From positions 1-35,085 of the IMG/VR virus record IMGVR_UViG_3300029245_000035: a stretch of 35,085 nt of DNA; one strand, written 5' to 3'. Below are positions 3,231 through 34,827 of the stretch, piece by piece. The stretch comes from a virus. The notes under the pieces are model-generated. The model had not been told where the DNA came from. It worked only from the letters and a program-made list of their open reading frames with translations, and ran no database searches. The position numbers and the translations under genes are program-made. The number at the start of each line of letters is the position of its first letter. Position 1 is the first letter of the stretch.

Positions 3231-5036
3231 TCACAGCGTGAAGTCCGCCCGTGCCACCGCCGCGGCAAGATCGGGCTTCTGATTCCTGGCAACCATCCAC
3301 ACGGCCATCACGATGATGCTCGCGACCGCCGGGTCGATGCGCCCCGTTGATTTATTCTTGAGCGGCTTGATGTTGCCGTTTCCGTCCGCATGGCAGCGGA
3401 CGTTGCCGAAGGTCCAGCGGAAGCAGGTGTTGTGGACGTGCAGCAGCGTGTGGCGCTGCATCATGTCGTCCGTCTCCTTCATCGCCGGGCTCATGTTCTT
3501 GAGGTCCTGCGGGATCTCGATGATCGGCACGATCGGCGCGAGCCGCTGCGTGATGGTCCGGCTCAGATACGGGTCAAAACCTACCATCTTGAGGTCGTAG
3601 CGCTCCCGCGCCTCGCGGATGCGCTCCTCCACCGCGCCGTAGTCGATGACCTCGCCGGGGCAGAGGTCGAGGAAGCCGGCACGCGCCCAGTCCCGGTAGG
3701 GGACGTGGTCGCGCTTTTCCGCCTCGTCCACCGTCGCCTCGGGCCGCCAGATGCCATAGGGCAGCAGCACCGCCACATCCAGCCCCGGCTGGGGCGGGAA
3801 GAGCAGAACAAAGGCCGTCAGGTCGCGGCTCGTGGAAAGGTCCACGCCGCCGTAGCAGAGCTTCCCGTCCAGCTGCCGCAGCCATTCCTCGCGCTCGCGC
3901 TTTTTGCTCGGCCCCCATTGCGTCTTGTCATAGAGGTTGAGCGAGATCCAGCCGACCGACTTCGTCGTGATCCATTGGTTGAGCCGCAGCCATCGGAATA
4001 CGCGCTCTTCGGCTTCGCTGCGCTTTGCGCTCGCCGCCTCCAGGCGGATATTGCGCAGGCTCAGGTGCTTACCGAGCGATGGGTTACAGAGTTTCCACAG
4101 GCTCTCGTCCCAGATGTCCAGCGCCTCGATGTCCTCGGGATCGTCGCCGAAGGTCGCCGTCAGGCCATAGAGGATCGGCAGCCAGTTGTCCTCGTCGCGC
4201 GATAGCAGCTCGCGCTCGGCGTCGGCAAGGTCCTCGTCGCTGGCATGCCGGAGAGAGAGGACCTTGCGCACGTCGCCGCCCTCAGCGCGGATGCGCCGCA
4301 GCTGCCGCGCGTCGCGGATGGCGACCGCCTTCTCGTGGATCTCCCAGCCGATCGAGTTGCGGTCGGGGTCGTCGCCCGCGGTCGTCAGCACGATCCAAGC
4401 CGGCTGCCGCCGGCTTGCACCCGCCGCTCCGGTCATCAGATCCCACAGTTTTCGGTTTGGCTGAGCATGGAGCTCGTCGAAGATGACGCAGCTCGGTTTC
4501 GGGCCGTGCTTGCCCGCCGTCTCGGCGGAAAGCACCTGCAAGATGCCGAGCGTGATCCACTTGTAGCCGCCGTTCTCGGTTCGCACGCGCCGCCGGTATT
4601 CGATGATCTTCCGGCTTTCCACGATGTTCAACTCGCCGCGGGCGATCATTTTCGCCGTCCACGGCGCGCTCGTTGCCATAAAGACCGCCGCGCGGTAGAC
4701 GATGGAAGCGTTGTTTCGGTCGACAGCGCAGAGGTAAACCTCTGCATTCATTTCGCCGTCGGCAAAAAGGTGGTAGAGCGCAAGCGCCGCAGCCAGCTCG
4801 CTCTTGCCGTTTTTCTTCGGGATCTCGAGGTAGAGGTACCAGTACCGGCGCAGCCGCTCTGCGCTCTCATCCGTGCCCGATTCGGGCACGTCGGCGCACA
4901 TCGTGCCGTAGAACTCCATCAGCGCCTCGCGCTGCCAGTCGTAAAGGCAGAAGGGCTTGCCCGTGTCGGTCGTCGGCAGGCGCTCGACAAAGTCGCACAC
5001 GAACTGCCCCGCCTCGCGGTCGAAAACGTATGCCAT
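3231..5036 (-). CDS. terL: Terminase large subunit
   Basis: Walker A-like EIPKKNGKSELAAALAL, VIFDELHAQ (Walker B) and a C-terminal nuclease domain. ATG at 5036 (MAYVFDREAG) abuts the TerS stop. Confidence 0.92.
   Translation of the reverse strand: MAYVFDREAGQFVCDFVERLPTTDTGKPFCLYDWQREALMEFYGTMCADVPESGTDESAERLRRYWYLYLEIPKKNGKSELAAALALYHLFADGEMNAEVYLCAVDRNNASIVYRAAVFMATSAPWTAKMIARGELNIVESRKIIEYRRRVRTENGGYKWITLGILQVLSAETAGKHGPKPSCVIFDELHAQPNRKLWDLMTGAAGASRRQPAWIVLTTAGDDPDRNSIGWEIHEKAVAIRDARQLRRIRAEGGDVRKVLSLRHASDEDLADAERELLSRDEDNWLPILYGLTATFGDDPEDIEALDIWDESLWKLCNPSLGKHLSLRNIRLEAASAKRSEAEERVFRWLRLNQWITTKSVGWISLNLYDKTQWGPSKKREREEWLRQLDGKLCYGGVDLSTSRDLTAFVLLFPPQPGLDVAVLLPYGIWRPEATVDEAEKRDHVPYRDWARAGFLDLCPGEVIDYGAVEERIREARERYDLKMVGFDPYLSRTITQRLAPIVPIIEIPQDLKNMSPAMKETDDMMQRHTLLHVHNTCFRWTFGNVRCHADGNGNIKPLKNKSTGRIDPAVASIIVMAVWMVARNQKPDLAAAVARADFTL
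4873..4889. repeat. 17-bp palindrome GTGCCCGATTCGGGCAC (perfect copy)
   Basis: Read directly from the sequence. Lies inside terL, where it encodes VPESGT. Confidence 0.95.
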
Positions 5037-5037
5037 G

Positions 5038-5568
5038 CTACAGGCTCCGCGCCAGCGCGTCCGCCTGCCGCTGCCGCAGCCGCTCCGTAAACTCATCTGT
5101 CCCGCTCTCCGGCGTGAACGCCGCCGCGGGCAGATTGCTCGGCAGCACCAGCCGGCAGCGGCTCGATACCGTCAGGCCCATGTCGTTCGCGCAGTTGCGC
5201 GCCTGCTTGAAGTAGCGCTCCTGCACGCGGCCCCAGCCGTCCGCCGCCTCTAAGTCGCGCGCGTGGCCCGGCGACTGAGTCAAGGCCCGCTGCACCTCCG
5301 CCGTCGCGCTGATATACTCGTGGTGGGCGACCAGATAGCGCCCGAGGTTGTCCGCGTCGAGGTCGGTGTAGAGCCCCACGTCAATGAGCTGCTTGCCGAT
5401 CGCGCGAAACTCGCGATGCAGTTCCTTGGGCAGCCATTTGGGCGGCTTCGCCCGCTGCGGCGCCGGCACCACCACCTCACGGTCGCGCCGCGCGTCCTCC
5501 TCGGCGCGCGTCATGTGCTTGCGCCCGTTCCTCACGACCAGATCGGTCGGTTGTCTTGCTCCTGCCAT
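5038..5568 (-). CDS. terS: Terminase small subunit, P27-family type
   Basis: 176 aa directly upstream of terL. The basic N-terminus and ...LYTDLDADNLGRYLVAHHEY...ANDMGLTVSSRCRL are typical of P27-like small terminases. AAAGGAG lies upstream of ATG 5568. Confidence 0.78.
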   Translation of the reverse strand: MAGARQPTDLVVRNGRKHMTRAEEDARRDREVVVPAPQRAKPPKWLPKELHREFRAIGKQLIDVGLYTDLDADNLGRYLVAHHEYISATAEVQRALTQSPGHARDLEAADGWGRVQERYFKQARNCANDMGLTVSSRCRLVLPSNLPAAAFTPESGTDEFTERLRQRQADALARSL

Positions 5569-5660
5569 CTCCGCGCTCCTTTCTGCGCTGCCGCCGAATA
5601 TACCGCTCCATGTCCCGCTTGAGATACGGGCTTGCTGTCGTGGACATGATCCGCTCAGCT

Positions 5661-6962
5661 TCAGCGATCGTCATGCTTCCCCAGCGCGGCGACAATTGAC
5701 CTCTCACGGGCACTCAGCTCCCAAACATGTGCCGCCGCCTTCTCCGCCGCCGCCTTCTCCGCCGCCGCCTTCTCCGCCGCCGCCTTCTCCGCCGCCGCCT
5801 TCTCCGAAAGAAGAAACGCCGCGCCGTAGATGGCTTTTTTCTGTGCGCGCTGCTCGTCCAGCGCCCGTGTAAAAGCGGCGTCCTCCGCACGCACACGCAG
5901 CGCCTGCCACTTGGCGGTCGGCGCAATACGGATCGGCGTCATCACGCAGTCCGGGTAGGTGTAGCCGGGCAACTCCGCCGCACCCTCACAGGTGTTTTGC
6001 GTGTTCAGCTCATCCACCCTGCGCCACAGCTCCGGCACCGTTTCAATTTTCCAGTTTCCAAGGTTGGTCACAAAGCTTGTGCGCACATCCGCGCCGTTTT
6101 CATAGGTGATGCGGCAAGACATCGGCAAATAGTTGCATGTCCCGGCCGCGATGCTAAAAAGCGTCAGTGCCGGCGCAAAAAGGAAAAATCGGATGCCGCG
6201 CTCCGTGTAAAATCGGCAGATCTGCGAGAGGATAGAAAACGGCGGGTTGTCAATCACCACGCAGCCGTCCGGGTAGGTCTCGTGCTCATAGTCGCCTCCG
6301 GGGTAAAATGGCCGAATCACCGGCGCGCCCTGCAAGCCGTAGTGCGCCAAAGCCCAGTCGCGAATCACCTCGTAGATGTTCTGCGGCGTGTAGCAGTCGT
6401 CGGTGGTGAGTTTCGGCTTGAATTTATCCACAAATTTCTCATAATCCTCGCTGCTTTCGCTCTCGACATCTCCCCAGAAGTGGTTTCTTTCTGCCGCTGG
6501 TTTCGCCCGCTCGTGGGCGCTGACATGGATCGTCTCGATCTCGTCCATCGTGAAACCGGTCAGCGCGGTGTCGAAAGAAAGGCTGCTTAGCTCTTCCATC
6601 TCAAACTTGAGCCGCGCCGCGTCCCACTCGCCCGTCTCGGCAAGTCGGTTGTCGGCGATGATGTAGGCGCGCCGCTGCGCCTCGCTCAGGTCGCTCACCG
6701 TCACATACGGGACCTCGGTCATACCCTCGGCCCGCGCCGCCTCGACGCGCCCATGTCCGGCGATCAGGTGCTTGTCCTTGTCGATCAGCACCGGCGAGAC
6801 GAAGCCGAACTCGCGCAGGCTGCGCCGCAGCTGCTCGATCTGCTCCGGCCCGTGGATCTTTGCGTTGTTTGCATAGGGGACCAGCTCGTCGATGCGTATT
6901 GTCGGCAGGTCCTTGACCACCACGCGCACCGGCGTCTGCACTGCTGTCTGCTTATTTCCCAT
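5661..6962 (-). CDS. ParB-like nuclease domain fused to N6-adenine DNA methyltransferase
   Basis: N-terminal ParB/Srx block: IRIDELVPYANNAKIH...LIAGHGRVEAA. C-terminal half carries DDCYTP and the VVIDNPPFS catalytic motif. ATG 6962 follows ACAGGAGGCAAGGC. The C-terminal tail contains (EKAAA)x5. Confidence 0.8.
   Translation of the reverse strand: MGNKQTAVQTPVRVVVKDLPTIRIDELVPYANNAKIHGPEQIEQLRRSLREFGFVSPVLIDKDKHLIAGHGRVEAARAEGMTEVPYVTVSDLSEAQRRAYIIADNRLAETGEWDAARLKFEMEELSSLSFDTALTGFTMDEIETIHVSAHERAKPAAERNHFWGDVESESSEDYEKFVDKFKPKLTTDDCYTPQNIYEVIRDWALAHYGLQGAPVIRPFYPGGDYEHETYPDGCVVIDNPPFSILSQICRFYTERGIRFFLFAPALTLFSIAAGTCNYLPMSCRITYENGADVRTSFVTNLGNWKIETVPELWRRVDELNTQNTCEGAAELPGYTYPDCVMTPIRIAPTAKWQALRVRAEDAAFTRALDEQRAQKKAIYGAAFLLSEKAAAEKAAAEKAAAEKAAAEKAAAHVWELSARERSIVAALGKHDDR
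5731..5805. repeat. Perfect tandem repeat, 5 x 15 bp (gccgccgccttctcc)
   Basis: Read directly. Encodes AEKAA x5 in the methyltransferase C-terminal tail. Confidence 0.95.
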
Positions 6963-7081: not shown

Positions 7082-7180
7082 AGTATCTGCCCCACCGGGC
7101 CTACGTCAATACACCACGCATCAAGCGCAGTCCTTCGGCCCAGGCAGGGCGGCGTTTTGCTTTTCTTTACTCCTGCGCAT

Positions 7181-8871: not shown

Positions 8872-9088
8872 ACATGCTCCCGACTATGCCGGCGGGCTCG
8901 CCGGAATGGTCGCCCTCAATGATGAACCTTCTTTGCAGCTCATAAAACGCTTGTAGAAACTCCTCACACAGGTTGTAATACAGAACATCATAGGACAGGC
9001 TGCCGTCGGCCAGTGTTGCTGCATACGCCGCATCATTTCGGTCGCAGCCGACGCTCATCAACAGCTTGATCATCCGTTTTCTTGTCAT
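8864..9088 (-). CDS. Hypothetical protein (74 aa)
   Basis: ATG start with an ATGA overlap to the upstream gene. Its end overlaps the next gene by 8 nt. Confidence 0.5.
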   Translation of the reverse strand: MTRKRMIKLLMSVGCDRNDAAYAATLADGSLSYDVLYYNLCEEFLQAFYELQRRFIIEGDHSGEPAGIVGSMYG

Positions 9089-9768
9089 TTCGCCCCTCCG
9101 TATCCGAGCTTGTCCAGCCCCGCGTTGACCGCGCGCCAGTGCTCAATGTCAAACTTCCCGTCGTTGCGCTGCATCAGGTAGAGCTTCGAGGCGTCCAGCC
9201 CGCAGGCCTCGGAGAGCTTGATCATCGAGCCCGGCCCCTTTTCCGACCAGTACCGGTTCAGCCGGGCGTGGATGTCCGCTTTCTCGCTCGACGCCCTCCC
9301 GGCAAACCGCGGCGTTGCCTGACCGACCGCCAACGGCAGCTTGATCTCCGTCGGCTTCGGCACGTCGGGCTTCTCCTCGGGCGGTCTCTCCGGCGGCTCG
9401 ACCGGCTTCGGCTCCGGTCGGCTCACGCCCTCCGCCGCGGGGATGTCGGGCAGCTCCTTCTTGGGAGGGCCCTTTTCCGTGCCCGAATCGGGCACCGAGC
9501 GGACGACGCGCCCGCCAACGACCAGCCCGCCGCCTCCGCCCGCAGGCGTCGGCTTCGGCCCGCCGATCACGACAGGTACGGCGTTCCCCGCGCCCACCTC
9601 CACCGCGCCGAGCGCGGGGAACTCCTCGACCGCGTAGGTCGTGCCAAGCGGCAGCACCAGCGTGCCCGCGCCGAGCGCGTCGCACACATAGGCGCGGAAC
9701 GCCTCGAGCTGCTTGACATCGGCGTGCAGCTCCGGCAGCTTGACGATCAACACCTTACTCCCCGTCAT
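9085..9768 (-). CDS. Hypothetical protein with Pro-rich linker and C-terminal HTH-like domain
   Basis: Start at MTGSKVLIVKLPEL (ATG 9768, ATGA overlap with the upstream stop). PEPKPVEPPERPPEEKPDVPKP linker. Contains a palindrome copy. Confidence 0.6.
   Translation of the reverse strand: MTGSKVLIVKLPELHADVKQLEAFRAYVCDALGAGTLVLPLGTTYAVEEFPALGAVEVGAGNAVPVVIGGPKPTPAGGGGGLVVGGRVVRSVPDSGTEKGPPKKELPDIPAAEGVSRPEPKPVEPPERPPEEKPDVPKPTEIKLPLAVGQATPRFAGRASSEKADIHARLNRYWSEKGPGSMIKLSEACGLDASKLYLMQRNDGKFDIEHWRAVNAGLDKLGYGGAK
9479..9495. repeat. 17-bp palindrome GTGCCCGAATCGGGCAC (perfect copy)
   Basis: Read directly. Encodes VPDSGT in the linker of the 9085-9768 protein. Confidence 0.95.
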
Positions 9769-10019
9769 AGCTCCACCCCTTCCAGCGCCTTGCGCAGGTC
9801 GATAAAGCGTCCGCCGAGGCCCTTGTCCACCAGCTCCTGCAGCGCGTCGAGCGTCAGCTCGGCGTCCTTGGCGCGGTAGACGTCCTCGCACAGACTCTCC
9901 ATGTCGCACAGCTTCACGGCCGCGCCGTAGAGCCGCGCCGGGCAGGAGAGCAGGCTCACGCCCTCGATGCCCCACGCCCCGTCCGGCGTCTTGTAGGTCA
10001 AGCGTCTAAATTCAGGCAT
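9765..10019 (-). CDS. Hypothetical protein (84 aa)
   Basis: ATG 10019 (MPEFRRLTYK) follows GGAGGTG. The ORF-track GTG at 10073 is less likely. Confidence 0.55.
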   Translation of the reverse strand: MPEFRRLTYKTPDGAWGIEGVSLLSCPARLYGAAVKLCDMESLCEDVYRAKDAELTLDALQELVDKGLGGRFIDLRKALEGVEL

Positions 10020-10305
10020 TGTCCGCACCTCCGTCCATCTTTGCCCCGCAGTACCTGCAATAGTAGCTATCACTGCTCTCTGCGTTTCCGCATTCGCTGC
10101 AAGTGATTACGCCGTCATCATGGTAAATCCACCGACCATGCACCACCGGCGCAACGTCGGCGGCTGGGAAGCGGGCGATCATCGCTACAAAGTGTGCGTG
10201 CTCACAGTCATGAATAATATGAGCCATACCACGTGGATGGGGGTTGTCGTGCTGGCTTTCCAGCACCGCTTGACGCAGCGCATCACGGTCGATGTATTCA
10301 TTCAT
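10012..10305 (-). CDS. Hypothetical protein with C-terminal zinc ribbon (97 aa)
   Basis: Start at MNEYIDRDAL (ATG 10305). C-terminus has CSECG...CRYCG. Confidence 0.6.
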   Translation of the reverse strand: MNEYIDRDALRQAVLESQHDNPHPRGMAHIIHDCEHAHFVAMIARFPAADVAPVVHGRWIYHDDGVITCSECGNAESSDSYYCRYCGAKMDGGADNA

Positions 10306-10585
10306 CGTTCTCAATCCTTTCCCACAGCCGCCGGACCTTGTGTGCCCGCTGCTCCGCCACCGCGTCCTCGACCTCAAACTCGATCGCCATTTGATCGAGC
10401 ATGATCCCGACGTCGGCGATCTCCTCGGCGATGTTGGCGAGCGTGTCACCGTCCACACGCCCGCGCAGAAATTTGCACAGCACGTCCTGCAGCTCGGCCA
10501 TCTCCTCAAAGGCCATCGTGATCTGCGCCTGCGCGCCGTAGCGGCTGAGCGCCGCGCAGAAGGTCTTGCGTTCCATGTCAGTCAT
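10298..10585 (-). CDS. MazG-like nucleotide pyrophosphohydrolase (small all-alpha type)
   Basis: EEMAELQDVLCKFLRG and EEIADVGIMLDQ EExx(E/D) motifs. AAAGGAG lies upstream of the ATG. Confidence 0.7.
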   Translation of the reverse strand: MTDMERKTFCAALSRYGAQAQITMAFEEMAELQDVLCKFLRGRVDGDTLANIAEEIADVGIMLDQMAIEFEVEDAVAEQRAHKVRRLWERIENDE

Positions 10586-10601
10586 TTGTCAGCTCCTTTA
10601 A

Positions 10602-11786
10602 TCACTTGAAATGCGGTAAAGGATCGTCCGTCAGACCGCAAAGGTAGTCCATCGTCGTGCCGAGCGTCAGCGCCAGCTTGGGCAGCGAGCCCGCACCGGC
10701 AAGGCTGTTGTTTTCCCACGCGCTGTAGGTGCCGGGATACTCGCCGATACTCTCGGCGAACTCCTTGCGCGTCAGGCCGGTCGCCTCGCGCAGAGCCTTG
10801 ACGCGCTCGCAGAATTTCGGCGTCATGTTCTTGAGCCGAGGATCGTCGGCTGCCGGATTTCGGGGCACGGAAGGCTCCTGCTCCTTCGGCGGCCGCTCTG
10901 CGACAACAAAGCGGCACGCAGAAAAGCAGGTGTCACGGTTGCGGCATTCGCGGCAGCAGCCGGCACAGCGCCACTCGCCATAGCGATAACGGTCAGCGTA
11001 CATCCGTGCGGCATTCGGGCAGAAGCCGCCGGTATCAGGGCATTTGTGCTTGCAGCAGGTCCAGCAGGTCGAAAACTCGCGCACATTGTTGATCGTCCAT
11101 GTGCGGTGATTGTCGATCACCCAATCCAGCAGCCTGTACTGCGTCTCGTCGTCCATGCGGGCGATCTCAAGCGCGGCGGCCTCGGGCAGCTCGCCCTTCT
11201 CCCACCGGGCGATGATGCCCGGCACCTTGAGGCCCTTTTTGATGACCTGCAGGTTGCCGACCTTCGTCGCGTTGATCTGCATCTCCTTGGCGATCCAGTC
11301 GCGAAGCCCGACCGGGAACGCCTCGCCGGCCTTTTTGCGCCGAATATAAGTCTCTTTAAGCTTCTCGGCCTCCTGCGCGAGCAGCGCGTTGGACTTCACG
11401 CGCTGGCGGTTTGCCTCGATCACGGCACAGAGCTCCTGCTCCTCCGTCATCGCGGGAAGCACCCGGCAGAGCACGGTGGAGAACTGCTTCGCGACGGCCT
11501 CGTCCCGATTCGCCGCGAGCAGCCGCAGCGCCGCCATGCGGCTGTGTCCAGAGATCAGGCGATACTTGCCGTCCTCCGCCGGCACGACGGTCGGCGGCTC
11601 GAGCAATCCGTTGGCCTGGATGGACTCCATCAGCGCGCCGAGCGCGTTGTTGTCGGGGCGCGGGTAGAAGTTGCGCGGATTGTCGAGGATGTCACCGACC
11701 GGGATCTCGCGCGTCATGCCCGAATCGGGCAAATCCGCGCGGTCGGGCAGAGCCTCGGCAAATTTCGTGATGTCAAACTTCGCCAT
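10602..11786 (-). CDS. ParB-like N-terminal domain protein with Cys-rich centre and C-terminal XRE HTH
   Basis: ParB/Srx block: GLLEPPTVVPAEDGKYRLISGHSRMAAL. Cys cluster: CWTCCKHKCPDTGGFCP...CAGCCRECRNRDTCFSAC. C-terminal HTH: GLTRKEFAESIG...YSAWEN. The ATG is at 11786. Confidence 0.8.
   Translation of the reverse strand: MAKFDITKFAEALPDRADLPDSGMTREIPVGDILDNPRNFYPRPDNNALGALMESIQANGLLEPPTVVPAEDGKYRLISGHSRMAALRLLAANRDEAVAKQFSTVLCRVLPAMTEEQELCAVIEANRQRVKSNALLAQEAEKLKETYIRRKKAGEAFPVGLRDWIAKEMQINATKVGNLQVIKKGLKVPGIIARWEKGELPEAAALEIARMDDETQYRLLDWVIDNHRTWTINNVREFSTCWTCCKHKCPDTGGFCPNAARMYADRYRYGEWRCAGCCRECRNRDTCFSACRFVVAERPPKEQEPSVPRNPAADDPRLKNMTPKFCERVKALREATGLTRKEFAESIGEYPGTYSAWENNSLAGAGSLPKLALTLGTTMDYLCGLTDDPLPHFK
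11716..11732. repeat. Palindrome near-copy ATGCCCGAATCGGGCAA (15/17, both outer bases differ)
   Basis: Read directly. Lies in the N-terminus of the ParB-like gene, near the parA/parB junction. Confidence 0.8.
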
Positions 11787-12558
11787 GACCAAGCTCCTCT
11801 CCGAGATATTCTGCCACCCAGCGGCGGTAGTCCTGCGTCGCCACGCTCCGCGGGCAGTAGTCGATCAACGGTTTTTTCTCAAACGTGGTCTCCACGACCT
11901 TATCCGTGCGCCGAATGACCTGCTCAAAGACCGGGATCCCGCGTTGGCGCAGCAAGGTCTCGCCCTCGCGCACAACCTCGCTGCTGTTCCGCATTGTGAC
12001 GAGCACACCGGCAATCCGCACGTCGGGACGCGCACGACGCAGGCTGCGGATCTGAGCGCGCACGCTCTCGAGGCCGTCAAAGACAAAACCGTCGATCTTC
12101 GCGGGGACAATCACCTCGTCACAGGCAAACAGCGCGTTGACACTCGCCACGGTGTACCCAGGGGGACAATCGAGGATGCAGTAGTCCGCGCCGTTGTCAT
12201 CCTCTGCCGCGCGGACGAAATCATACAGAACACGCGTGCGCCGCATACCCTCGTGCAGCGCGTTGCAGTCGATGTCATAGAGCTCCGAGGATGCGGGTAC
12301 AAGCAGCATCGACGGCGAGAGCGTGATGGCGGAATCGCTCCAGAGCGGCTCCGCCATGCCAAGCAAAAGCGTTGCAACGTTGCTGTCCGAGTCGGGGTCG
12401 TAGCCCGGCTTGTAAAAGTTCGTCAGATTGCATTGTCCGTCGCAGTCGATCAGCAGCACGCGCTTTCCGTAGTCATGTACGAGGATCTCTGCGAGGTTGA
12501 TGGCGGTGACGGTCTTGCCGACGCCGCCTTTGTTGTTCATGATCGCAATGGTTTTCAT
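11773..12558 (-). CDS. parA: ParA/Soj-type partition ATPase
   Basis: MKTIAIMNNKGGVGKT (deviant Walker A), LLIDCDGQCN and ILDCPPG. ATG 12558 follows ACAGGAGAA. The longer ORF-track N-terminus is Arg-rich junk. Confidence 0.9.
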   Translation of the reverse strand: MKTIAIMNNKGGVGKTVTAINLAEILVHDYGKRVLLIDCDGQCNLTNFYKPGYDPDSDSNVATLLLGMAEPLWSDSAITLSPSMLLVPASSELYDIDCNALHEGMRRTRVLYDFVRAAEDDNGADYCILDCPPGYTVASVNALFACDEVIVPAKIDGFVFDGLESVRAQIRSLRRARPDVRIAGVLVTMRNSSEVVREGETLLRQRGIPVFEQVIRRTDKVVETTFEKKPLIDYCPRSVATQDYRRWVAEYLGEELGHGEV

Positions 12559-12581
12559 GTCGTTCTCCTGTTTTTTCTCTG

Positions 12582-12767
12582 TCAGAATTTGAAGCCCTCG
12601 CGGACCTTTACGCCGTCGCCGAGGTCGGCCTCGACGAGGAACCAGCGGTGCGCGCGGTTGATGTACACGATGCGCCCGGGCAGCAGCCGCGGAAGCTCCC
12701 GATGTCCGGGGCCGATGGCCGCGCCGATGTCCGCCAAAATGGCGTGGGGATCTCCGATTCTTGGCAT
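12582..12767 (-). CDS. Hypothetical protein (61 aa)
   Basis: ATG start. Fills the gap between dnaB and parA on the same strand. Only a weak purine-rich Shine-Dalgarno (SD) sequence. Confidence 0.4.
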   Translation of the reverse strand: MPRIGDPHAILADIGAAIGPGHRELPRLLPGRIVYINRAHRWFLVEADLGDGVKVREGFKF

Positions 12768-12796
12768 GTCGTTTCTCTCTTTCTCTCAATTTTTTT

Positions 12797-14158
12797 TCAG
12801 AACGGCGCCTCTGTATCCGGCGGCAGCTCCTCCAGCCGGAGCTGGCCGTCGCTGTGCGCCCGGCGCTGCTGCTTGACAAAGTTGCCCTTATCCACAAAGC
12901 CACGCATCGCCTTGGAGCCCTCGGTGTGCTGGAAGTCGATCATGGCAAACTTCTGATGCGCACCGTCAAAGCTCGCGACCAGCGTAGTGCGCGGGCCGTT
13001 CTTCTGCTTGGCGATTTTGATGTACCGGTTGTCGTTGACGTCAAAGCGCTTGTCATTCTCCGACGGGCGGAAAATGAACATGACCGTGTCGGCGTCCTGC
13101 TCGATCTGGCCGCTCTCGCGCAGGTCCGGGAGATCCGGCTGCCGCCAACCGCCCTTTTCCTGTCGGCTGAGCTGCGAGAGCTCAAAGACCAGCGTTTTAG
13201 ACCGCTGCGCAAAGGCGTGCAGCGCGCGGGAGATCTGCGCGATCTCCTCCTGCCGGTTTGGGTTCGAGCGCTCCGGCTGGATAAGCTGCAGGTAGTCCAC
13301 GAAAATGACCTCGAACTGGCAGGCCTCCGCCTCCGCGATGATCTCTGCAGCCGTCGCGGTGGGGCAGTGGACCAGCTTGAACATACGCTCCGCGAGCTGC
13401 TCGTGATGCGCGGCGATCGCGTCATAGTCCTTTTGCTTGAGCCGATAGTTGACCGAATCGTCCATGCCGATGCCGAAGGTCTCGGCAATGAGGCGGTCCT
13501 CAACATCGGGATGGTCTGTCTCCAGCGAGAAGAAGCCGACGCGGCGCGTCTTGGCGATCTCGCGGGCGATCTGCAGCGCGAAGGCCGTCTTGCCGTGACC
13601 GGGACGGGCCGCGACAACCACGACGTGCCCGAGGCGCGTATGCACCGCGTCGTCCAGCTCGCGCAGGCCGTAGCGGACATAGTTTTTGTCCTCGCCCTTG
13701 GACTGGCGCTCCATGTAGTTCGCGAGCAGCTGCGCGGCGTCGTAAATCTCAAAGCGGCGCTTGCCGGCGGAGAGCTTGCGGATGTCCTCAAGCAGCGGGC
13801 CGTATTGGTCCGTATCCGGTGCGTCCAGCAGTTTCTGCGCCAGATCCCGCACGCGGCGCTTGGTCGCCTCGTCCTGCATGATCGCGGCGTAGGCTTCCCA
13901 GTTGGCAGCGGTCGGCGTGACCTCAAGCAGCTGCAGCAGATAGTCGCTGTAGTCCTGCCCGATTCGGGCGCGGACCGTCACGCCGTCGATGGGCTTGCCG
14001 TGGATGTACATATCGCGCATGGCGGCGAAGATCATCCGATCCGCGTCGAGAGCAAAATCATCCTCGCGCACCGTGTGGATCACGTCGGGCAAGATGCGCT
14101 CGTCCTGCAGCATCGAGCCGAGCAGTGCCTGCTCGGCGCTCAAGCCTCGCTCGCTCAT
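12797..14158 (-). CDS. dnaB: Replicative DNA helicase, DnaB family
   Basis: N-terminal EQALLGSMLQD. Walker A VVVAARPGHGKTAFALQIA. Walker B FEVIFVDYLQLI. Also ELSQLSRQ. Confidence 0.92.
   Translation of the reverse strand: MSERGLSAEQALLGSMLQDERILPDVIHTVREDDFALDADRMIFAAMRDMYIHGKPIDGVTVRARIGQDYSDYLLQLLEVTPTAANWEAYAAIMQDEATKRRVRDLAQKLLDAPDTDQYGPLLEDIRKLSAGKRRFEIYDAAQLLANYMERQSKGEDKNYVRYGLRELDDAVHTRLGHVVVVAARPGHGKTAFALQIAREIAKTRRVGFFSLETDHPDVEDRLIAETFGIGMDDSVNYRLKQKDYDAIAAHHEQLAERMFKLVHCPTATAAEIIAEAEACQFEVIFVDYLQLIQPERSNPNRQEEIAQISRALHAFAQRSKTLVFELSQLSRQEKGGWRQPDLPDLRESGQIEQDADTVMFIFRPSENDKRFDVNDNRYIKIAKQKNGPRTTLVASFDGAHQKFAMIDFQHTEGSKAMRGFVDKGNFVKQQRRAHSDGQLRLEELPPDTEAPF
13955..13971. repeat. 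Palindrome near-copy CTGCCCGATTCGGGCGC (15/17, 13-bp core intact)
   Basis: Read directly. Lies inside dnaB, in a different reading frame (RARIGQ). Confidence 0.75.
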
Positions 14159-14913
14159 CAGTACACCCCCAGCTTGACCTCATCGCAGGCGGGCGCGTCA
14201 CGCTGCGCCGGGCGCTTGGCCTTGGCGTCCTCCCAGCGCCGGCCGTTGAGGAAGGTCGAGGCATACGGAATGCCGACGCCGTCCCGCCACGCGGGCGAAG
14301 CCTTGAGTATCTGCAGCGCTCGGCCTATCGTCTCGATCAGCGCGTCGTCCGGCTTGAGCTTGTCCCAGGCGCGGACCGCGCCCATGCGGTTCTCCCCGCG
14401 GGGGTAGTAGGCCCAGAAGCCCTCAAAGCGCTCCGGCTTCCACTCAGGCGTCGTCTTGCTGCGCCGATTTCTCGGCTCCTCGCCGTCCCCCTTGGGGGGA
14501 CTATAGGGGGGTATAATATAATCTTTAGTCTCTACGTTCTTACTTTGGGTCGGAAACTCCGTTGACGGTGTTTCCCGACGACGGTTTTCACCGTTGTCGG
14601 TGTTTTCCGACAACGGTGGCTTTTCCTGCAAAACGTAGGTGTTCGCGGAAAAGCGCCCGCTGCCGTCATGCGATTGCTCGCGCATCAGATAACCGACCTC
14701 CTCAAGCCGTCCCACGAGGCGGCGCACCGTGTCCTTGCCGACGCCGCGCTCCTTCGCCATGCCGGAGATCGTGAACTCCCAGTCAGGCGGCTTGTCGAGC
14801 ATGTAGGTCAGAAATCCGAGCATCTCAAAGCTCAGGCGCGTGTCTCGGATCGCGGACTTATACAGGACGGTAAACGGCTCACGATGGCCGGACTTTATTA
14901 CGCCCTCGCTCAT
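14158..14913 (-). CDS. Replication initiator / replisome organizer (winged-helix N-domain)
   Basis: FTVLYKSAIRD...LGFLTYMLDKPPDWEF...GVGKDTVRRLVGRLEEVGYL. C-terminal ...FWAYYPRGENRMGAVRAW...TFLNGRRWED. Directly upstream of dnaB. ATG 14913 follows GGAGGAAAGT (the alternative is 14925). Confidence 0.7.
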   Translation of the reverse strand: MSEGVIKSGHREPFTVLYKSAIRDTRLSFEMLGFLTYMLDKPPDWEFTISGMAKERGVGKDTVRRLVGRLEEVGYLMREQSHDGSGRFSANTYVLQEKPPLSENTDNGENRRRETPSTEFPTQSKNVETKDYIIPPYSPPKGDGEEPRNRRSKTTPEWKPERFEGFWAYYPRGENRMGAVRAWDKLKPDDALIETIGRALQILKASPAWRDGVGIPYASTFLNGRRWEDAKAKRPAQRDAPACDEVKLGVY

Positions 14914-15007
14914 ACTTTCCTCCATCCAAATAAACGATGATCTTCATCAGCCGCTCCGTGAGAGACGTGACGCCGACGAGGATCAGGAAGGTGTCCAGCC
15001 CCGTCAT
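14879..15007 (-). CDS. Possible small hydrophobic protein (42 aa)
   Basis: ATG 15007 forms an ATGA overlap with the upstream stop. However, it overlaps the next gene start by about 35 nt. Confidence 0.25.
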   Translation of the reverse strand: MTGLDTFLILVGVTSLTERLMKIIVYLDGGKYERGRNKVRPS

Positions 15008-15567
15008 GCGCGCGCCTCCCCTCGGAAGGTGTTGACATTCGTCTGTTTCTGCGATATACTGTGCTTGCAATGGTTTTCAGAGCTCCTGCTCTGGGGACGG
15101 GAACGCTTCGAGGTGCCAGCCTCGGGGCGTTCTTTTTTTGCGTCCGCGTAGATCACCTGATAGGCCGCGGCGATGGTCTCGCGCAGGTCCTGCACGATGT
15201 CGTCAAACTCGGGGCGCTCCGCGTCGTCGATCACGCCGTCCTCGGCGATGCGCAGCAGTCCGGCCAGCCGGTCCGCTGCGTCGCGCAGGCGGTTGGTCAG
15301 CGAGATGGTCGCCATCGGCAGGGGCTTGGGCTCCAGCTCCGGCAGGATGCCGAGCCGGTCGGTTGCCTTCGCGTGCTCCAGCGCCAGCCAGCTCACGCCG
15401 TAGACCGCGCACATCCGCGCTACGGTCTCGTCCGGCGGTGTGAGCCGTCCGCCCTCGTAGCGCTTGAGCGTTTCGGGCGAGATGTGCAGCCGCTCCGCCG
15501 CCTCCTCCTGCGTCAAAAGTGTCGTTTTTCTCCCTCTTTGGTAGAGATTCGGGTACAGTGCCGACAT
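15004..15567 (-). CDS. XRE-family HTH protein (187 aa)
   Basis: LTQEEAAERLHISPETLKRYEGG HTH. AAAGGAGG lies upstream. Confidence 0.75.
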   Translation of the reverse strand: MSALYPNLYQRGRKTTLLTQEEAAERLHISPETLKRYEGGRLTPPDETVARMCAVYGVSWLALEHAKATDRLGILPELEPKPLPMATISLTNRLRDAADRLAGLLRIAEDGVIDDAERPEFDDIVQDLRETIAAAYQVIYADAKKERPEAGTSKRSRPQSRSSENHCKHSISQKQTNVNTFRGEARA

Positions 15568-15596
15568 GGTAAAATGTCCTCCTTTGTGTTATGATT

Positions 15597-15836
15597 TTAA
15601 TAGCGGATGGCCTCGCGCAGCTCCTCGATCGGGATGCCGAGCGCACGGCCCAGCCGCCGCAGCTCGCCGAGCGTAAGGTCCTCGGGCTTCGCCTTCCGTC
15701 GGGCAACCGTCGTGCGCGAGATGTTCGCCTTGTCGCCTAACTGCTCGTTCGTCAGGCCCCGAACATCCGCCATGCCCCAGATCAGGGCGACGAGCTTCTC
15801 GTTGCTCGTGTTGCGGCCTAAATTTACGCGCGGCAT
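15597..15836 (-). CDS. Small HTH DNA-binding protein (79 aa)
   Basis: LTNEQLGDKANISRTTVARRK. Strong GTGAGGAGG SD sequence. Confidence 0.7.
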   Translation of the reverse strand: MPRVNLGRNTSNEKLVALIWGMADVRGLTNEQLGDKANISRTTVARRKAKPEDLTLGELRRLGRALGIPIEELREAIRY

Positions 15837-15848
15837 GTCATCGCCTCC

Positions 15849-16127: not shown

Positions 16128-16145
16128 TTCTTCACACCCTTTCTA

Positions 16146-16174
16146 TTGATTTCGTCAAAAATGTGTGGTATAAG
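16146..16174 (+). promoter_or_regulatory. Near-consensus sigma-70-type promoter facing the repressor gene, antisense to early genes
   Basis: TTGATT (16146-16151), a 17-nt spacer ending in TGG (extended -10), then TATAAG (16169-16174). Confidence 0.5.
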
Positions 16175-16191
16175 TTAAAGCGTGCCTTTAA
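16175..16191. promoter_or_regulatory. Operator-like palindrome TTAAAG-N5-CTTTAA (O2)
   Basis: Read directly. Immediately downstream of the -10 at 16169-16174. Same half-sites as 16654-16670. Confidence 0.55.
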
Positions 16192-17421: not shown

Positions 17422-17438
17422 GTGCCCGATTCGGGCAC
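17422..17438. repeat. 17-bp palindrome GTGCCCGATTCGGGCAC (perfect copy, intergenic)
   Basis: Read directly. Lies between a TATAAA box (17411-17416) and the GGGAGGAA SD sequence of the Ltp-like gene. Confidence 0.95.
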
Positions 17439-22280: not shown

Positions 22281-22319
22281 ATAAAAAAAACAAGAGCGCC
22301 GACTAATCGTCGGTGCTCT
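22281..22319 (-). terminator. Rho-independent terminator after the sigma-like gene
   Basis: On the minus strand: AGAGCACCGAC-gatta-GTCGGCGCTCT followed by TGTTTTTTTTAT. Confidence 0.7.
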
Positions 22320-22551
22320 CGTTTTGTCCGTCTGCGATTTTGTGATAGGCGCGGCGGCGCAGCTTGGCGAGGCCGTCCACGCTGAGGTGGAGCAGCTCCG
22401 CCGCCTGCACGCAGGACCGCCCGCGCACGTCGCACTCGATGAGGCTCGCGGCCTCGTCGGGCGGCAGGTCGAAGGAACGAATGTAGGAAATGGCTCTGCG
22501 CGGAGCCATCGCGGAAAGTTGAGCGCGGATCTCTCTGTGCTGTGTGTCCAT
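22303..22551 (-). CDS. Small sigma-70 region-4-like HTH protein (82 aa)
   Basis: LPPDEAASLIECDVRGRSCVQAAELLHLSVDGLAKLRRRAYHKI. ATG 22551, with a weak SD sequence. Confidence 0.55.
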   Translation of the reverse strand: MDTQHREIRAQLSAMAPRRAISYIRSFDLPPDEAASLIECDVRGRSCVQAAELLHLSVDGLAKLRRRAYHKIADGQNESTDD

Positions 22552-22621
22552 AGAGGCACCACGGCTTGCAGGCGCCCACGCGAGGGGAAGTGTTGCAGAC
22601 TTCCCACCGGTTTTCCTTTCC

Positions 22622-22638
22622 GTGCCCGAATCGGGCAC
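22622..22638. repeat. 17-bp palindrome GTGCCCGAATCGGGCAC (perfect copy, intergenic)
   Basis: Read directly. Lies 4 nt beyond the endolysin stop. Confidence 0.95.
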
Positions 22639-28025: not shown

Positions 28026-30136
28026 GCGCTCTCCTCCTTGTCCCAGTACACCACCACGCAGCCGCTTGCGCCAATCGCGCCGGACGTACCCTTGCCAGGC
28101 TCCACGTCCACGATCCACCGGCTCCCTGCGGGGCTTCCGTCCGGGTGGTACTGTTTTTCCTTGTGCCGCTCGCCCTTATTTCCACCCCTGCCGCCCTTGC
28201 CGCCGTCGCCTGTGCCCGATTTGGGCACGGCCACGCCTGTGCGGGCGAAGCTGTCGCCGCTTTGGATGTCGGTGAACCCGTTCGGATAGCGTTTGCCGTT
28301 GGCGGAGGAGTATGCGCCAAAGGCGGAAGCCTCGCCGATGGTGATGGCAAAGGTCTGCTGCTCGTTGATCTGAATGGTATCCGCCCAAACAAGGCCGCCG
28401 AGACCGTCCGTGCCGTCCGCGCCCGCCGCGTCAAAGTCGCCGTCCGCGCCAGCCGTGCCGTCTCCGCCGTGCCCGACGCAGATGACGCGCAGCCGCGTTT
28501 TGCCCGCCGGGGCCGTCCACGATCCGCTCTCGGTAAAGACCGCGCGCTCGGTGTAGAGATACGAGCCGTCCGCCTGCAAGAGCTTGCTTTGGCAGCCCTG
28601 CAGCACGCCGTCCGAGAATTGAAACGTCTGGTAGATGCGCCGCGCCGTGGTCGCGCTGCTCTCGTCGAGCCACACGGTGTCCACGTCGCCGATCTCACTT
28701 GCGGGGTCGCCGCGCCCGGTCAGCTCCAGCTGATTGCCGCCGTAGCACGAGAGGATCAGCCGCGCCGCCGTGAGCACCTGCGCCTGCGTGTGCAGAAACG
28801 GGTTCTCGATGGTCACGGTCTTCTCGCTGCTCGTGGAGTTGCCCGAGACGACGTACTCCGTCCCGTCCGAGAGGTGGAAAATGAGCGACGCAAGGGACTG
28901 GTTGGCCTTCATGGTCGGGTAATTGACGAGGTTTTCCAGCGTGATCTTGCTGCCTTGATTCCACAGCGGTTCCACCGCAAGTTTGCCCGTCTCCGCGTCC
29001 GCGCGCGGCCATGTGCCGGTCGCCATGCAGGCCCAGCGCAGGATGTCGCCGCACTTCTTCCCGCTCACCGCGGCGCGGCTTGAGGCCGTGACCGCGAGGT
29101 CGGCATAGTCCGCGTCCACCGTGTAGCGGCTTGCAAAATTGGTGCCGAGCTGCGCGACGAGTGAGGCGATCCAGCCGGAGAGCGTGATAGGCAGCACCGT
29201 CGGCGCGAGGTACGCGCGGTCGGCGAGCAGCCCAATGATATCCACAAGGTCCCACTGCATCGTCAGGCCGTTGTCGCCGGTCTTCCAGCCGTCGGAGTAT
29301 TGATAGAAGACGCCCACGCGCTTATACTCCACCGTACCGTCCGCAAGCCGCACGCCGATGTAGGTCTCCACGCCCTGCCGCTCCTCGATGCTCTGGAACA
29401 GGCCCGACTTGCTCCGCGGCTCGAAGCGCCGCGAGAGGTTGTCCATCTTGAGCGTGCAGGTGCCGTAAGGCGGCGACAGGCAGCTCACGTCGCCCTGCTG
29501 TTTGCAGTCAAAGGCCGCGACGATGTCCTCCGTCCACTCCTCGTACACGCCCGGCAGGATCTCCACCACACGCATCCGGCGCGAGGGCAGGCTCCATTTG
29601 GTCACGGTCACGCGGATGGTGTCGGGCGTCTGCACGGTAAATCCCTCAAAGGCGACCGCGCTCGCCGTGTTGCCGGTGACGGTCTTGCTGTAAAAGGTCT
29701 GCCCGGCGCTCAGGACCTCCACCGTGAAGTCCTCGGCCACACCCTCCAGCGGGTCGGACGGGAAATAAACCGAGAATGCCTGCAGCACGCTGACGTCGGA
29801 GAACGTGATCGCCGCCCAGGCGGGGGAAGCAAAGCTTCCGTCCGCGCCGGAGAGCTGCGCGTCCGCGACGCCCATGTGCTCGCTCACCTGATAGTCGTCC
29901 GGGAAAATGTCGAAGGAGCCGTCCAGCAGCCAGCGGTCCTGCTCCAGCGTCGCGTAGCGGGCCGTCGTGAAGCGGTAGTCGTAGAGCTCCGCGGTCTTCG
30001 CCCAGGGCGCGAGGCTGTCCGCGCTGCCGCCGGTAAGCTGCATGTCCGGGTCGATGATGTGGATAACGGCCTTGAGCAGCACGCGCCGCGTGTCGCCGGT
30101 GATGGCGGCGAGATACGCCGCCGAGGACTCAATCAT
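28022..30136 (-). CDS. Tail-associated (Tal / prophage-tail-endopeptidase-like) protein with Gly-rich C-terminal domain
   Basis: 704 aa, downstream of TMP and Dit. C-terminus: GHGGDGTAGADGDFDAAGADGTDGLGG...GTGDGGKGGRGGNKG...GASGCVVVYW. Confidence 0.78.
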   Translation of the reverse strand: MIESSAAYLAAITGDTRRVLLKAVIHIIDPDMQLTGGSADSLAPWAKTAELYDYRFTTARYATLEQDRWLLDGSFDIFPDDYQVSEHMGVADAQLSGADGSFASPAWAAITFSDVSVLQAFSVYFPSDPLEGVAEDFTVEVLSAGQTFYSKTVTGNTASAVAFEGFTVQTPDTIRVTVTKWSLPSRRMRVVEILPGVYEEWTEDIVAAFDCKQQGDVSCLSPPYGTCTLKMDNLSRRFEPRSKSGLFQSIEERQGVETYIGVRLADGTVEYKRVGVFYQYSDGWKTGDNGLTMQWDLVDIIGLLADRAYLAPTVLPITLSGWIASLVAQLGTNFASRYTVDADYADLAVTASSRAAVSGKKCGDILRWACMATGTWPRADAETGKLAVEPLWNQGSKITLENLVNYPTMKANQSLASLIFHLSDGTEYVVSGNSTSSEKTVTIENPFLHTQAQVLTAARLILSCYGGNQLELTGRGDPASEIGDVDTVWLDESSATTARRIYQTFQFSDGVLQGCQSKLLQADGSYLYTERAVFTESGSWTAPAGKTRLRVICVGHGGDGTAGADGDFDAAGADGTDGLGGLVWADTIQINEQQTFAITIGEASAFGAYSSANGKRYPNGFTDIQSGDSFARTGVAVPKSGTGDGGKGGRGGNKGERHKEKQYHPDGSPAGSRWIVDVEPGKGTSGAIGASGCVVVYWDKEESA
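28212..28228. repeat. Palindrome near-copy GTGCCCGATTTGGGCAC (16/17)
   Basis: Read directly. Encodes VPKSGT in the Gly-rich tail of Tal. Confidence 0.85.
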
Positions 30137-33817: not shown

Positions 33818-34166
33818 CGTCCTCGTCCCCGGTCAGCGCGTCGAACTCGAACACATAGTGCTGCCCGAGCTCGTCCGTCGCCGGCGAAATAGTCGGGAGG
33901 GAGAACTCGTCCGTTTCCTCGATGGCCGCGGTCAGCGCCCGCCGCTTGGCGACGGTCGACGCCTTGAGCGGCGCAAGGTAGTGCAGCTGCACCCGCGCGA
34001 GCCCGACGTCGGTCCCGTCGTCGCCGGCAAGACCGGCGGTCTGCGTGTAGTCAAACGTGCAGTATTCCTCCGGCGGTGTCTCGCCCGACTCTGTGACCAG
34101 CAGATCCGGCACGCACACCGGCACGATCGGCGTCACGACTGCGATGATTCTTTCATTCAGCGTCAT
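33804..34166 (-). CDS. Neck/tail-completion protein (120 aa)
   Basis: ATG 34166 forms an ATGA overlap with the upstream stop. Position between the head-closure and gp10-like genes. Confidence 0.55.
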   Translation of the reverse strand: MTLNERIIAVVTPIVPVCVPDLLVTESGETPPEEYCTFDYTQTAGLAGDDGTDVGLARVQLHYLAPLKASTVAKRRALTAAIEETDEFSLPTISPATDELGQHYVFEFDALTGDEDDGAV

Positions 34167-34507
34167 ACCTTGCCCTCCTGCGTGATGCGCTCGCACCAGA
34201 ACTCCATGTACTTTCCCTCGTCGCCGTAGGTGTTGACGTAGAGGATGTTGTAGTCGCGCCCGTCGTAGCGGATCAGGAGCCGCCGGTCAAGCAGCTCCGG
34301 GTTCGCGCGCGTGAGAAAGCGCACCTTTGCCTCGCCGAACTCCGCATTTGCCCGGATCAGCTCCGTGCCGCTCGTCTGCGAGAACTGCGCCCAGGTCTCG
34401 CGCACGGGCTCCGGCTCGCCGGGTACGTCGTAGCCGTCGGCGTCCTTTGCCGTCGTTTTCCGCAAAAGCTGGATGCGCTTTGAGAGCTTTCCTGCGTCAA
34501 CGTGCAT
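34163..34507 (-). CDS. Head-closure / head-tail joining protein (SPP1 gp16-like)
   Basis: ...LSKRIQLLRKT...DGYDVP...WAQF....GTE...A......KVRFLTR.....D.RLLIRYDGRDYNILYV. Confidence 0.72.
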   Translation of the reverse strand: MHVDAGKLSKRIQLLRKTTAKDADGYDVPGEPEPVRETWAQFSQTSGTELIRANAEFGEAKVRFLTRANPELLDRRLLIRYDGRDYNILYVNTYGDEGKYMEFWCERITQEGKV

Positions 34508-34827
34508 CACACGCCTCCCTCCGTTCCCTCGCCCGTGCCCGAATCGGGCACAGGCTCGCTGAGCTTGAGCTGGTTGATCATGAGCCGAACGACGCGGTTC
34601 TCGCTGGCGGCCTGGTCGATGGAAATGCCGCGCCGGTCGTACTGCTCAAGCGTCAGAGCCTTGACGCAGAGGAGATACATCGCGAAGCGCGGCGTCCCGT
34701 CTTCCGGCTTGCTGCACACGCCGGAGAGAATATAGCCCTCCGCCGCGTCAATATAGCCAGGCAGCTCCGCGTCGTCCGCGTCGACCTTGCAGTAAACGGC
34801 GATCTCGCTCAGCCTCTCGGGCAGCAT
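34507..34827 (-). CDS. Head-tail connector (gp6-like)
   Basis: First gene after the capsid gene. ...YCKVDADDAELPGYIDAAEGYI... pattern. The C-terminal tail carries a palindrome copy. Confidence 0.72.
   Translation of the reverse strand: MLPERLSEIAVYCKVDADDAELPGYIDAAEGYILSGVCSKPEDGTPRFAMYLLCVKALTLEQYDRRGISIDQAASENRVVRLMINQLKLSEPVPDSGTGEGTEGGV
34535..34551. repeat. 17-bp palindrome GTGCCCGAATCGGGCAC (perfect copy)
   Basis: Read directly. Encodes VPDSGT in the C-terminal tail of the connector protein. Confidence 0.95.

Follow-up and report, generated by a model that had tools for sequence, protein, structure and literature searches.

What purpose would be served by a 17-bp palindrome that recurs around a viral genome almost wholly occupied by genes? 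We addressed this question for IMG/VR virus record IMGVR_UViG_3300029245_000035, positions 1 to 35,085; this whole stretch of 35,085 nucleotides is hereafter called the window. Its two ends (1-87 and 34999-35085) are identical over 87 bp, indicating a complete circular genome of 34,998 bp. The palindrome, GTGCCCGAWTCGGGCAC, is present in five exact copies, starting at 4873, 9479, 17422, 22622 and 34535, and in three near copies, starting at 28212 (one mismatch), 11716 and 13955 (two mismatches each); an initial annotation had listed the same eight starts, and our recount returned all of them. None of 100 dinucleotide-preserving shuffles yielded any perfect copy, and sites with up to three mismatches number eight against 0.26 expected. 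The 13-bp core GCCCGAWTCGGGC occurs seven times, always within the listed sites, and CCGAWTCGG was counted seven times where a third-order Markov model predicts 0.15. No other repeated palindrome or long word was found in the window, and a literature search on the motif strings returned nothing relevant. On the sequence evidence, the element is real and strongly selected, with its general nature well supported, and we infer a ParB-family protein as a plausible ligand.

The eight sites are also distributed more evenly than expected by chance. The gaps between them round the circle measure 4606, 2237, 2239, 3467, 5200, 5590, 6323 and approximately 5340-5420 bp, and this quasi-regular spacing, remarked on in the initial annotation, departs from random placement by the minimum gap (P = 0.007), the maximum gap (P = 0.002) and the coefficient of variation (P = 0.003).

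Most of the copies lie inside open reading frames (ORFs). The perfect copy at 4873..4889 (GTGCCCGATTCGGGCAC) falls in the N-terminal region of the large terminase gene terL and is read on the minus strand as VPESGT; a second perfect copy, at 9479..9495, lies within an ORF of unassigned function (9085-9975), is read as VPDSGT, and in 18 relatives has a counterpart in the homologous ORF, at +480 or +393. The near copy at 11716..11732, with two outer mismatches and an intact 15-bp core, occupies codons 21-26 of the ParB-like gene (LPDSGM), whereas the near copy at 28212..28228 (GTGCCCGATTTGGGCAC, one mismatch) encodes VPKSGT in the C-terminal part of the tail-associated lysin (Tal), and this imperfect variant recurs in relatives. 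The perfect copy at 34535..34551 falls in the final codons of the head-tail adaptor gene, and the head-completion gene starts 25 nt downstream of it. These five copies share one reading frame, V/L-P-(D/E/K)-S-G-T/M, and the exception to it is the near copy at 13955..13971 (two mismatches, 13-bp core intact) in the 5' region of dnaB, which is read in another frame as RARIGQ; both points had been made from the first inspection of the sequence and hold. The remaining two perfect copies are intergenic. One, at 17422..17438, lies 16 nt upstream of the ltp ATG and immediately before its Shine-Dalgarno (SD) sequence (GAGGGAGG), and the other, at 22622..22638, lies just past the endolysin stop codon and 70 nt upstream of the ATG of a small sigma-70 region-4-like helix-turn-helix (HTH) gene, homologues of which are the commonest neighbour in loci picked by the motif alone. 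The earlier description of these two copies stands for the ltp site, placed between a -10-like box and the SD sequence, but the distance from the endolysin stop is 3 nt and not 4.

The DNA motif, which is conserved in hundreds of related phages, and not the peptide, is under selection, and the proteins tolerate it. This conclusion is supported by the intergenic copies, by conservation at synonymous positions, by the use of a single preferred frame, and by syntenic conservation in relatives whose proteins are only 25-60% identical, and it agrees with what the initial annotation had proposed. For synonymous positions, we compared 11 divergent parB genes picked by protein pattern and not by the motif: third-codon-position identity was 0.82 at four of the five motif codons examined and 0.56 at the central W codon, against mostly 0.24-0.56 in flanking codons, a few of which reached 0.8-1.0. 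The frame GTG-CCC-GAW-TCG-GGC-ACx, encoding the small polar peptide VP(D/E)SGT, was used by 71 of the 87 copies in sense ORFs (82%; one third expected). The suggestion that positions be checked for persistence while their flanks vary was followed, and syntenic places were found to be kept: at the parB 5' end (proteins 26-91% identical, with a perfect palindrome and conserved synonymous positions), at the adaptor 3' end (only 35-59% identical, with the copy at +246 to +276), in the TerL N-terminal region (76-96%), and upstream of the small HTH gene that follows the lysin gene (40-99%). Coding copies tend to lie near gene 5' ends (41% versus 21% of controls), 34% of unique sites have an SD sequence and a start codon within approximately 40 nt downstream (11% of random positions), and many copies fit exactly between a stop codon and the following SD sequence.

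A dispersed palindrome that often sits in linkers and gene junctions might also be a selfish element of the repetitive extragenic palindrome or miniature inverted-repeat transposable element kind, spreading by insertion, and the genome does include a G2P/Rep-like gene, albeit by a weak Pfam match. However, the positions are syntenic and stable over deep divergence, the copies are evenly spaced and not clustered, and a length of 17 bp is not a multiple of three, yet the copies are embedded in frame. Neither a transposase nor a transposase of the type associated with repetitive extragenic palindromes (RAYT) was found. We therefore regard insertional spread as hardly credible.

The nature of the ligand is indicated by natural variants of the motif. 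A second form, the T-type core GTCCGAWTCGGAC, which differs at position 4 and at its mirror position 14, was found in loci centred on ParB homologues. In a typing set of 398 viral loci (labelled L010, L294, L403 and so on), 61 contained at least two C-type cores (GCCCGAWTCGGGC, as in the window) and no T-type core, 67 showed the reverse, and none contained both. Half-site hybrids occur in a few phages (L294, L299 and L305), and there are two further types, GTGTCCAAWTTGGACAC (L316) and the asymmetric GTGTCCAAGTCTGACAC (L311-L319), each of which recurs within its own phages and also has a copy in the 5' end of parB. Among 285 unique sites, the 4/14 pair was the sole two-sided change (C:G in 186, T:A in 64), all other deviations being one-sided. 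The central base was placed without regard to the direction of transcription (A in 85, T in 53), and the orientations of hybrid half-sites relative to transcription were balanced at 6:6. The symmetric 4/14 change, together with the lack of strand bias in the central base and the hybrids, suggests that a dimeric protein recognises the palindrome as double-stranded DNA, and we predict, with high though not complete confidence, that this is so and that the protein is specific to this phage family.

These same variants bear on the possibility that the element acts as an RNA or single-stranded DNA hairpin, whether as a terminator or attenuator, an mRNA end-stabiliser, an inter-cistron processing signal or the target of an RNA-binding regulator. 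The hairpin-forming potential noted initially is genuine: a 7-bp stem closed by a triloop is predicted as RNA at about -14 kcal/mol, or stronger depending on the flanks (z -2.4 to -4.3), and the change from C:G to T:A at 4/14 preserves pairing. The copies placed exactly between stop codon and SD sequence would also suit such a role, as would the few that are followed by T-runs, namely one copy in L403 and, on the minus strand, the copy at 17422, which runs into the terminator-like AATTTTTTAT. Nevertheless, sequence is conserved and not pairing alone, with all copies within a genome identical; deviations other than that at 4/14 are uncompensated, and in T-type sites the outer pairs are not kept. 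In transcripts, one hybrid orientation would produce a G.U wobble and the other a C.A mismatch, yet the two are equally frequent, and the loop centre is A or U with no strand preference. Unbiased hybrids and a conserved sequence fit poorly with an RNA hairpin, in which G.U would be favoured over C.A and any stable stem would serve. Most copies lack a U-tract; in the region scanned (15800-18600), only the 17422 copy on the minus strand qualifies as an intrinsic terminator, other flanks having no T-run, and no Rfam family matched at the sites. A leader hairpin upstream of the small HTH gene (g22306) provides a counterexample within the same genome, since it is conserved in structure only, its stems varying with compensation, unlike the motif. 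Taken together, these observations make a hairpin role improbable.

That leader hairpin lies at approximately 22584-22604 on the minus strand, between the 22622 copy and the ATG at 22551, and its stems in relatives read GGGAAGT/ACTTCCC, GGGAGAC/GTCTCCC and GGGAGGC/GCCTCCC; it probably serves the small HTH gene as an RNA leader. Two local arrangements were also observed in L403. At 9747-9790, after its small HTH gene, the T-type motif constitutes the core of a canonical terminator, AGAGCC-motif-GGCTCT-TTTTATTTTT, and at 5091-5122 the motif exactly fills a TAG-motif-GGAGG-ATG junction.

Phages usually avoid, rather than enrich, palindromic restriction targets, a consideration that counts against another role raised in the initial annotation, that of a methylation- or restriction-related site centred on GANTC. 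The centre of the motif is indeed GAWTC, and phage ParB_N domains are often fused to methyltransferases (PMC12704722), which would be in favour of this role. In the window, however, GANTC was observed 53 times against 69 expected and GAWTC 32 times against 32, so that the pentamer is not enriched outside the motif. No methyltransferase domain was detected among the window genes scanned, and the sister types replace the centre altogether, with CCAAWTTGG or CCAAGTCTG instead of GANTC. A methylation role was thus not borne out and appears very remote.

Domain searches revealed the layout of a temperate siphovirus, with nearly all genes on the minus strand. Packaging, structural and lysis genes include those for portal, TerL, the small terminase TerS, HNH, head-tail adaptor, head-completion protein, tape measure, Tal and a CHAP endolysin; a lysogeny module on the plus strand comprises the Ltp lipoprotein, a tyrosine integrase and a CI-like gene, and the 17422-type intergenic site beside this module is retained in both C-type and T-type relatives. 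The early block encodes a Cro-like HTH protein, a 187-aa XRE-family regulator (hereafter HTH187), a DnaD-like initiator, DnaB, ParA and the ParB-family protein. Among GenBank phages, the only matches were short unannotated fragments from human faecal samples, and a motif scan of viral contigs returned at least 119 stretches, many from gut contigs of 30-45 kb with three to five copies each. In a species-level genome collection, most motif matches were single chance hits in high-GC soil taxa, and those sharing genes with the window were prophages in metagenome-assembled genomes (MAGs) of Dysosmobacter, Oscillibacter, Oscillospiraceae and "Clostridiales"; a high-GC bacterium within the Oscillospiraceae is therefore the very probable host. 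An alphaproteobacterial host, and with it the idea of a CcrM site, was rejected on the basis of these Oscillospiraceae-type prophage relatives and the flat GANTC statistics.

The sites might instead recruit a factor of this host, such as a nucleoid-associated or regulatory protein, with the C and T types mirroring host species. A conserved host reader would more easily account for an identical 17-mer in phages as distant as 25-27% identity in TerL and ParB, and the strict exclusivity of types within each phage would be consistent with it. In a scan of Clostridia genomes, however, at least 18 of approximately 29 matches lay in prophage regions homologous to the phage, and no clearly chromosomal site was identified among the matches listed, which also agrees with the earlier view that the motif is not a generic host repeat. 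To our knowledge, none of the established Firmicutes sites (parS TGTTNCACGTGAAACA, the Noc-binding site NBS, the LexA box and the Spo0A box) matches the 17-mer. We consider recruitment of a host factor a slim prospect.

A dimeric phage protein had been named at the outset as the likeliest ligand, with the ParB-like protein as the best candidate, and our results favour the same choice, in that this protein adjoins a genuine ParA and a type-specific palindrome is present in the parB 5' end in every lineage. The ParA/Soj-type ATPase (11773..12558, minus strand) is encoded immediately upstream of parB; it has AAA_31/CbiA/ParA domains and the deviant Walker A motif KGGVGKT, and its best PDB match is Thermus Soj (E = 5.5e-25). 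The ParB-family protein (10602..11792, minus strand; Pfam PF02195) comprises ParB_N, a ParB/KorB-type HTH domain, a conserved Cys-rich block (CWTCCKHKCP...CAGCCRECRNRDTCFSAC) and a C-terminal XRE HTH. Profile searches of the PDB matched it to Spo0J, Noc, ParB and KorB, and in a low-confidence structural model its central domain gave fold matches to the DNA-binding domains of ParB, Noc, KorB and SopB. Features of ParABS systems present here thus include the adjacency of ParA and parB and the combination of ParB_N, with its CTPase fold, and a ParB-type HTH. ParB was beside ParA in all 67 loci spanning the slot, and more than 1,300 ParB homologues were recovered from gut metagenomes, mostly on contigs of approximately 35 kb. 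The window protein has 396 aa as compared with 473-485 aa in most homologues, implying that a C-terminal domain is missing; the ORF at 10298-10585 was considered as the missing part and found not to be it.

Each of the four motif types occurs in its own lineage's parB at codons ~12-25, where it is read as VPESGT, VSESDT, VSNLD or VSKSDT. A second copy lies near the parB 3' end in the L010-type lineage and, as judged from motif coordinates, approximately 1.2 kb downstream of the parB start in the L311-type lineage. In the mosaic relative L036, compared with window positions 9000-15600, flanking genes are 90-98% identical to the window and the DnaB-ParA-ParB cassette has been swapped for a version at 28-51% identity, and the motif type is the same. 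Residue M171, located where the first HTH helix ends, partly covaries with the motif type: 29 of 30 C-type ParBs have M or C there, 18 of 19 T-type ParBs have L, and the tree shows at least 2-3 independent switches.

Our preferred reading is that the ParB-family protein, next to its Soj-type ParA, is the ligand of the sites; taken in full, with binding and downstream function both predicted, we give this reading an even chance. The eight sites would then be loading sites, resembling parS or operators, at intervals of 2-6 kb round the 35-kb genome. A dimer of the ParB-like protein would nucleate at each of them and, with ParA, organise the whole phage DNA, serving partition or positioning of an extrachromosomal form, long-range repression like that by KorB on RK2 or BisD on ICEclc, or both. 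Because the genome is almost wholly coding, sites may persist where they are least harmful, at stop-to-SD junctions and in protein tails and linkers, in the frame that encodes the harmless VP(D/E)SGT.

Several observations weigh against this assignment. The phage encodes a tyrosine integrase and its relatives are embedded in bacterial MAG contigs of 105-335 kb, so partition is not obviously needed. The canonical LG(R/K)GL motif for interaction with ParA was not found in ParB, the N-terminus of which reads M(A)KFDITKF..., and the GERRxRA box for binding cytidine triphosphate (CTP) reads SGHSRMAA or SGHRR (GHSR/GHRR), which makes CTP binding uncertain. The AlphaFold model is poor (mean predicted local distance difference test score, pLDDT, 51) and confident only at residues 130-245. 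The recognition helix is only moderately conserved among C-type lineages with an identical 17-mer, and L251 and L294 break the M171 rule. In none of the protein families tested does identity between pure C-type and pure T-type phages exceed 76%, so covariation has little power and cannot single out ParB. In addition, nearly all sites have been lost from some ParB clades, such as L291 and L293, save for a degenerate copy in parB; in the clade of L291, L293, L295 and L301, which has a different C-terminal half, that remaining copy reads GTACCCGAATCGGACAC, a pattern that suggests that the system can decay. Two apparent covariation signals were discarded: the perfectly segregating columns in ParB and in the replication initiator are residues encoded by the motif itself, and the apparent exclusion of ParA, DnaB and Rep hinged on the single hybrid locus L294.

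Covariation likewise keeps in view a second regulator, HTH187 (phrog_6499; 15004..15567, minus strand), for which the sites would be operators in a stoperator-like network or in a global network of repression or activation at gene boundaries. Proteins of the XRE family typically bind palindromes as dimers. HTH187 was present in 78 of the 81 loci spanning its slot, and C-type and T-type phages are distinguished by nine of its columns, two of them within its first HTH helix, a further point against ParB; moreover, phages with hybrid sites show a mixed state at both first-helix columns. The excess of sites before an SD sequence and start codon, the enrichment of coding copies near 5' ends and the single site between a -10-like box and the ltp SD sequence would also be in keeping with operators. 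On the other hand, the HTH187 gene has no site within or beside it, whereas one is always present in parB; the HTH187 recognition helix LSVESLKQYEGG is identical in some C-type and T-type phages; the separating columns may merely reflect common ancestry; and most sites are away from predicted promoters. We consider it unlikely that the sites are operators of HTH187 or of another phage regulator.

Other encoded proteins were set aside as ligands. Among C-type phages, the CI-like (16737-17102) and Cro-like (15849-16127) repressors share only 13-16% identity and are thus too diverse. The second ParB_N protein, a nuclease-like one (5661-6962), is disfavoured in that no tblastn homologue was found in L010-type loci, which keep the motif. 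The small sigma-70 region-4-like HTH protein (82 aa; 22303..22551, minus strand), encoded downstream of the 22622 copy, has homologues that carry PF08281, and it follows the endolysin in C-type and T-type phages; its recognition helix is variable in the homologues, and a C-type motif precedes at least one of them. It too is disfavoured, since the helix is nearly unchanged between this C-type phage and the T-type L403, apart from one conservative L/I exchange.

Comparison with known systems suggests that the SopB sites of phage N15 and the KorB operators of plasmid RK2 would be the closest mechanistic analogues, and the repeats of Cluster O mycobacteriophages the closest in form. In N15 the sites are located in separate parts of the genome and affect gene expression as well. 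They number four (IR1-IR4) and are single palindromes of approximately 16-18 bp (e.g. GTGCGACCACGGTCGCAC), each with its own flanks and with no tandem array like F sopC; they are bound by SopB, a ParB-family protein that works with a ParA-type ATPase (PMC7205306). The likeness consists in separate single palindromes and a ParB-family/ParA pair, ParB being only a candidate binder here. By contrast, N15 is an obligate linear plasmid prophage, whereas this phage has an integrase and relatives in chromosomal contigs; there are four sites in N15 against eight here, mostly inside ORFs in a fixed frame; and the ParB of this phage differs from N15 SopB in its Cys-rich block and extra XRE HTH.

Plasmid RK2 carries 12 OB operators, 13-bp palindromes dispersed over the whole replicon, some of them far from promoters, and KorB combines partition with global long-range repression through a CTP-dependent sliding clamp. 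As in RK2, the ParB-family protein adjoins a ParA homologue, and the DNA-binding domain of KorB is among the fold matches (1R71, 8QA8/9). The small HTH gene beside one of the sites has a homologue that one source calls TrfB/KorA-like, although a KorA-like role is unsupported, as its recognition helix does not track motif type. Similarity to KorB in sequence is marginal (E = 0.005), no promoter classes are defined here, and the element is a phage and not a conjugative plasmid. The chromosomal parS sites of Firmicutes, bound by Spo0J/ParB, are likewise palindromes, of 16 bp, in approximately 8-10 copies that are mostly coding, one of them inside parB (spo0J) itself, and the ParB of this phage matches Spo0J and Noc best. 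These sites differ in sequence, however, and those described here span the whole 35-kb replicon and not an origin domain, with a ParB in which the ParA-interaction motif is absent.

Cluster O mycobacteriophages have dispersed 17-bp dyad repeats, TGTTCGGNNNCCGAACA, built as 7-3-7 with invariant arms and with central bases that do not follow the direction of transcription; the repeats fall in roughly equal thirds into intergenic gaps, the vicinity of gene 5' ends and gene interiors (PMC4351075). Their authors predicted a dimeric binder, with the function left unexplained, and a protein with a ParB-like domain is encoded (PMC4351075). The resemblance concerns architecture only, with no sequence relation: the same 7-3-7 build, invariant arms, dispersal, positional distribution and lack of orientation. 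The sequence and the host phylum are different, the copy number is approximately 34 per 70 kb as compared with eight per 35 kb here, neither parA nor an integrase is present in Cluster O phages, and no type switching was described in them.

Further classes of dispersed phage sites were rejected. Cluster A stoperators are numerous repressor sites distributed genome-wide, largely in short intergenic gaps, that silence transcription (PMC9283540). Their sequence is asymmetric, they follow the direction of transcription, and their ligand is an immunity repressor that binds as a monomer, whereas the sites here are palindromic and unoriented in both central base and hybrids; in addition, the CI-like repressors are too diverse for one site. 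The start-associated sequences of Cluster K lie a few bp before the start codon and overlap the SD sequence, but only about a third of the sites described here are near an SD sequence and start codon, and most window copies are in ORFs. Intrinsic terminators were excluded as a class, most copies lacking the combination of hairpin and U-tract, with occasional co-option as at 17422 on the minus strand and in L403.

Dispersed dyad repeats have thus been reported in phages before, in Cluster O, with their purpose unexplained. The present case supplies what was lacking there, namely hundreds of natural variants, at least four exclusive types, a site fixed in parB and a co-encoded ParA, and these make the question open to direct experiment with one protein and two site types. 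It also shows how coding sequence can accommodate a predicted binding site by way of one tolerated frame, and it adds an architecture (ParB_N, HTH, Cys-rich block and XRE HTH) to those of the ParB-like proteins of mobile elements that may be regulatory and not segregational. More tentatively, a large family of integrating gut phages may possess a circuit akin to KorB/IncC, in which a ParB-family clamp on evenly spaced palindromes within coding sequence controls or compacts the genome, beyond mere partition, and the four or more exclusive specificities constitute groups resembling those of incompatibility or immunity; we hold this extension to be rather doubtful. If it were true, the long-unexplained 17-bp repeats of Cluster O might be loading sites of the same kind for ParB-like proteins.

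Two further features were observed in the neighbourhood of the second ParB_N gene. An Rfam match to DUF3800-VIII RNA lies at 7086-7153 on the minus strand, between the HNH gene and this ParB_N gene, with a score of 45.8 bits, above the gathering score. At the 3' end of the ParB_N nuclease-like gene (5661-6962), a 15-bp unit, GAAGGCGGCGGCGGA, is repeated five times in tandem at approximately 5731-5805, and presumably encodes a short peptide repeat.

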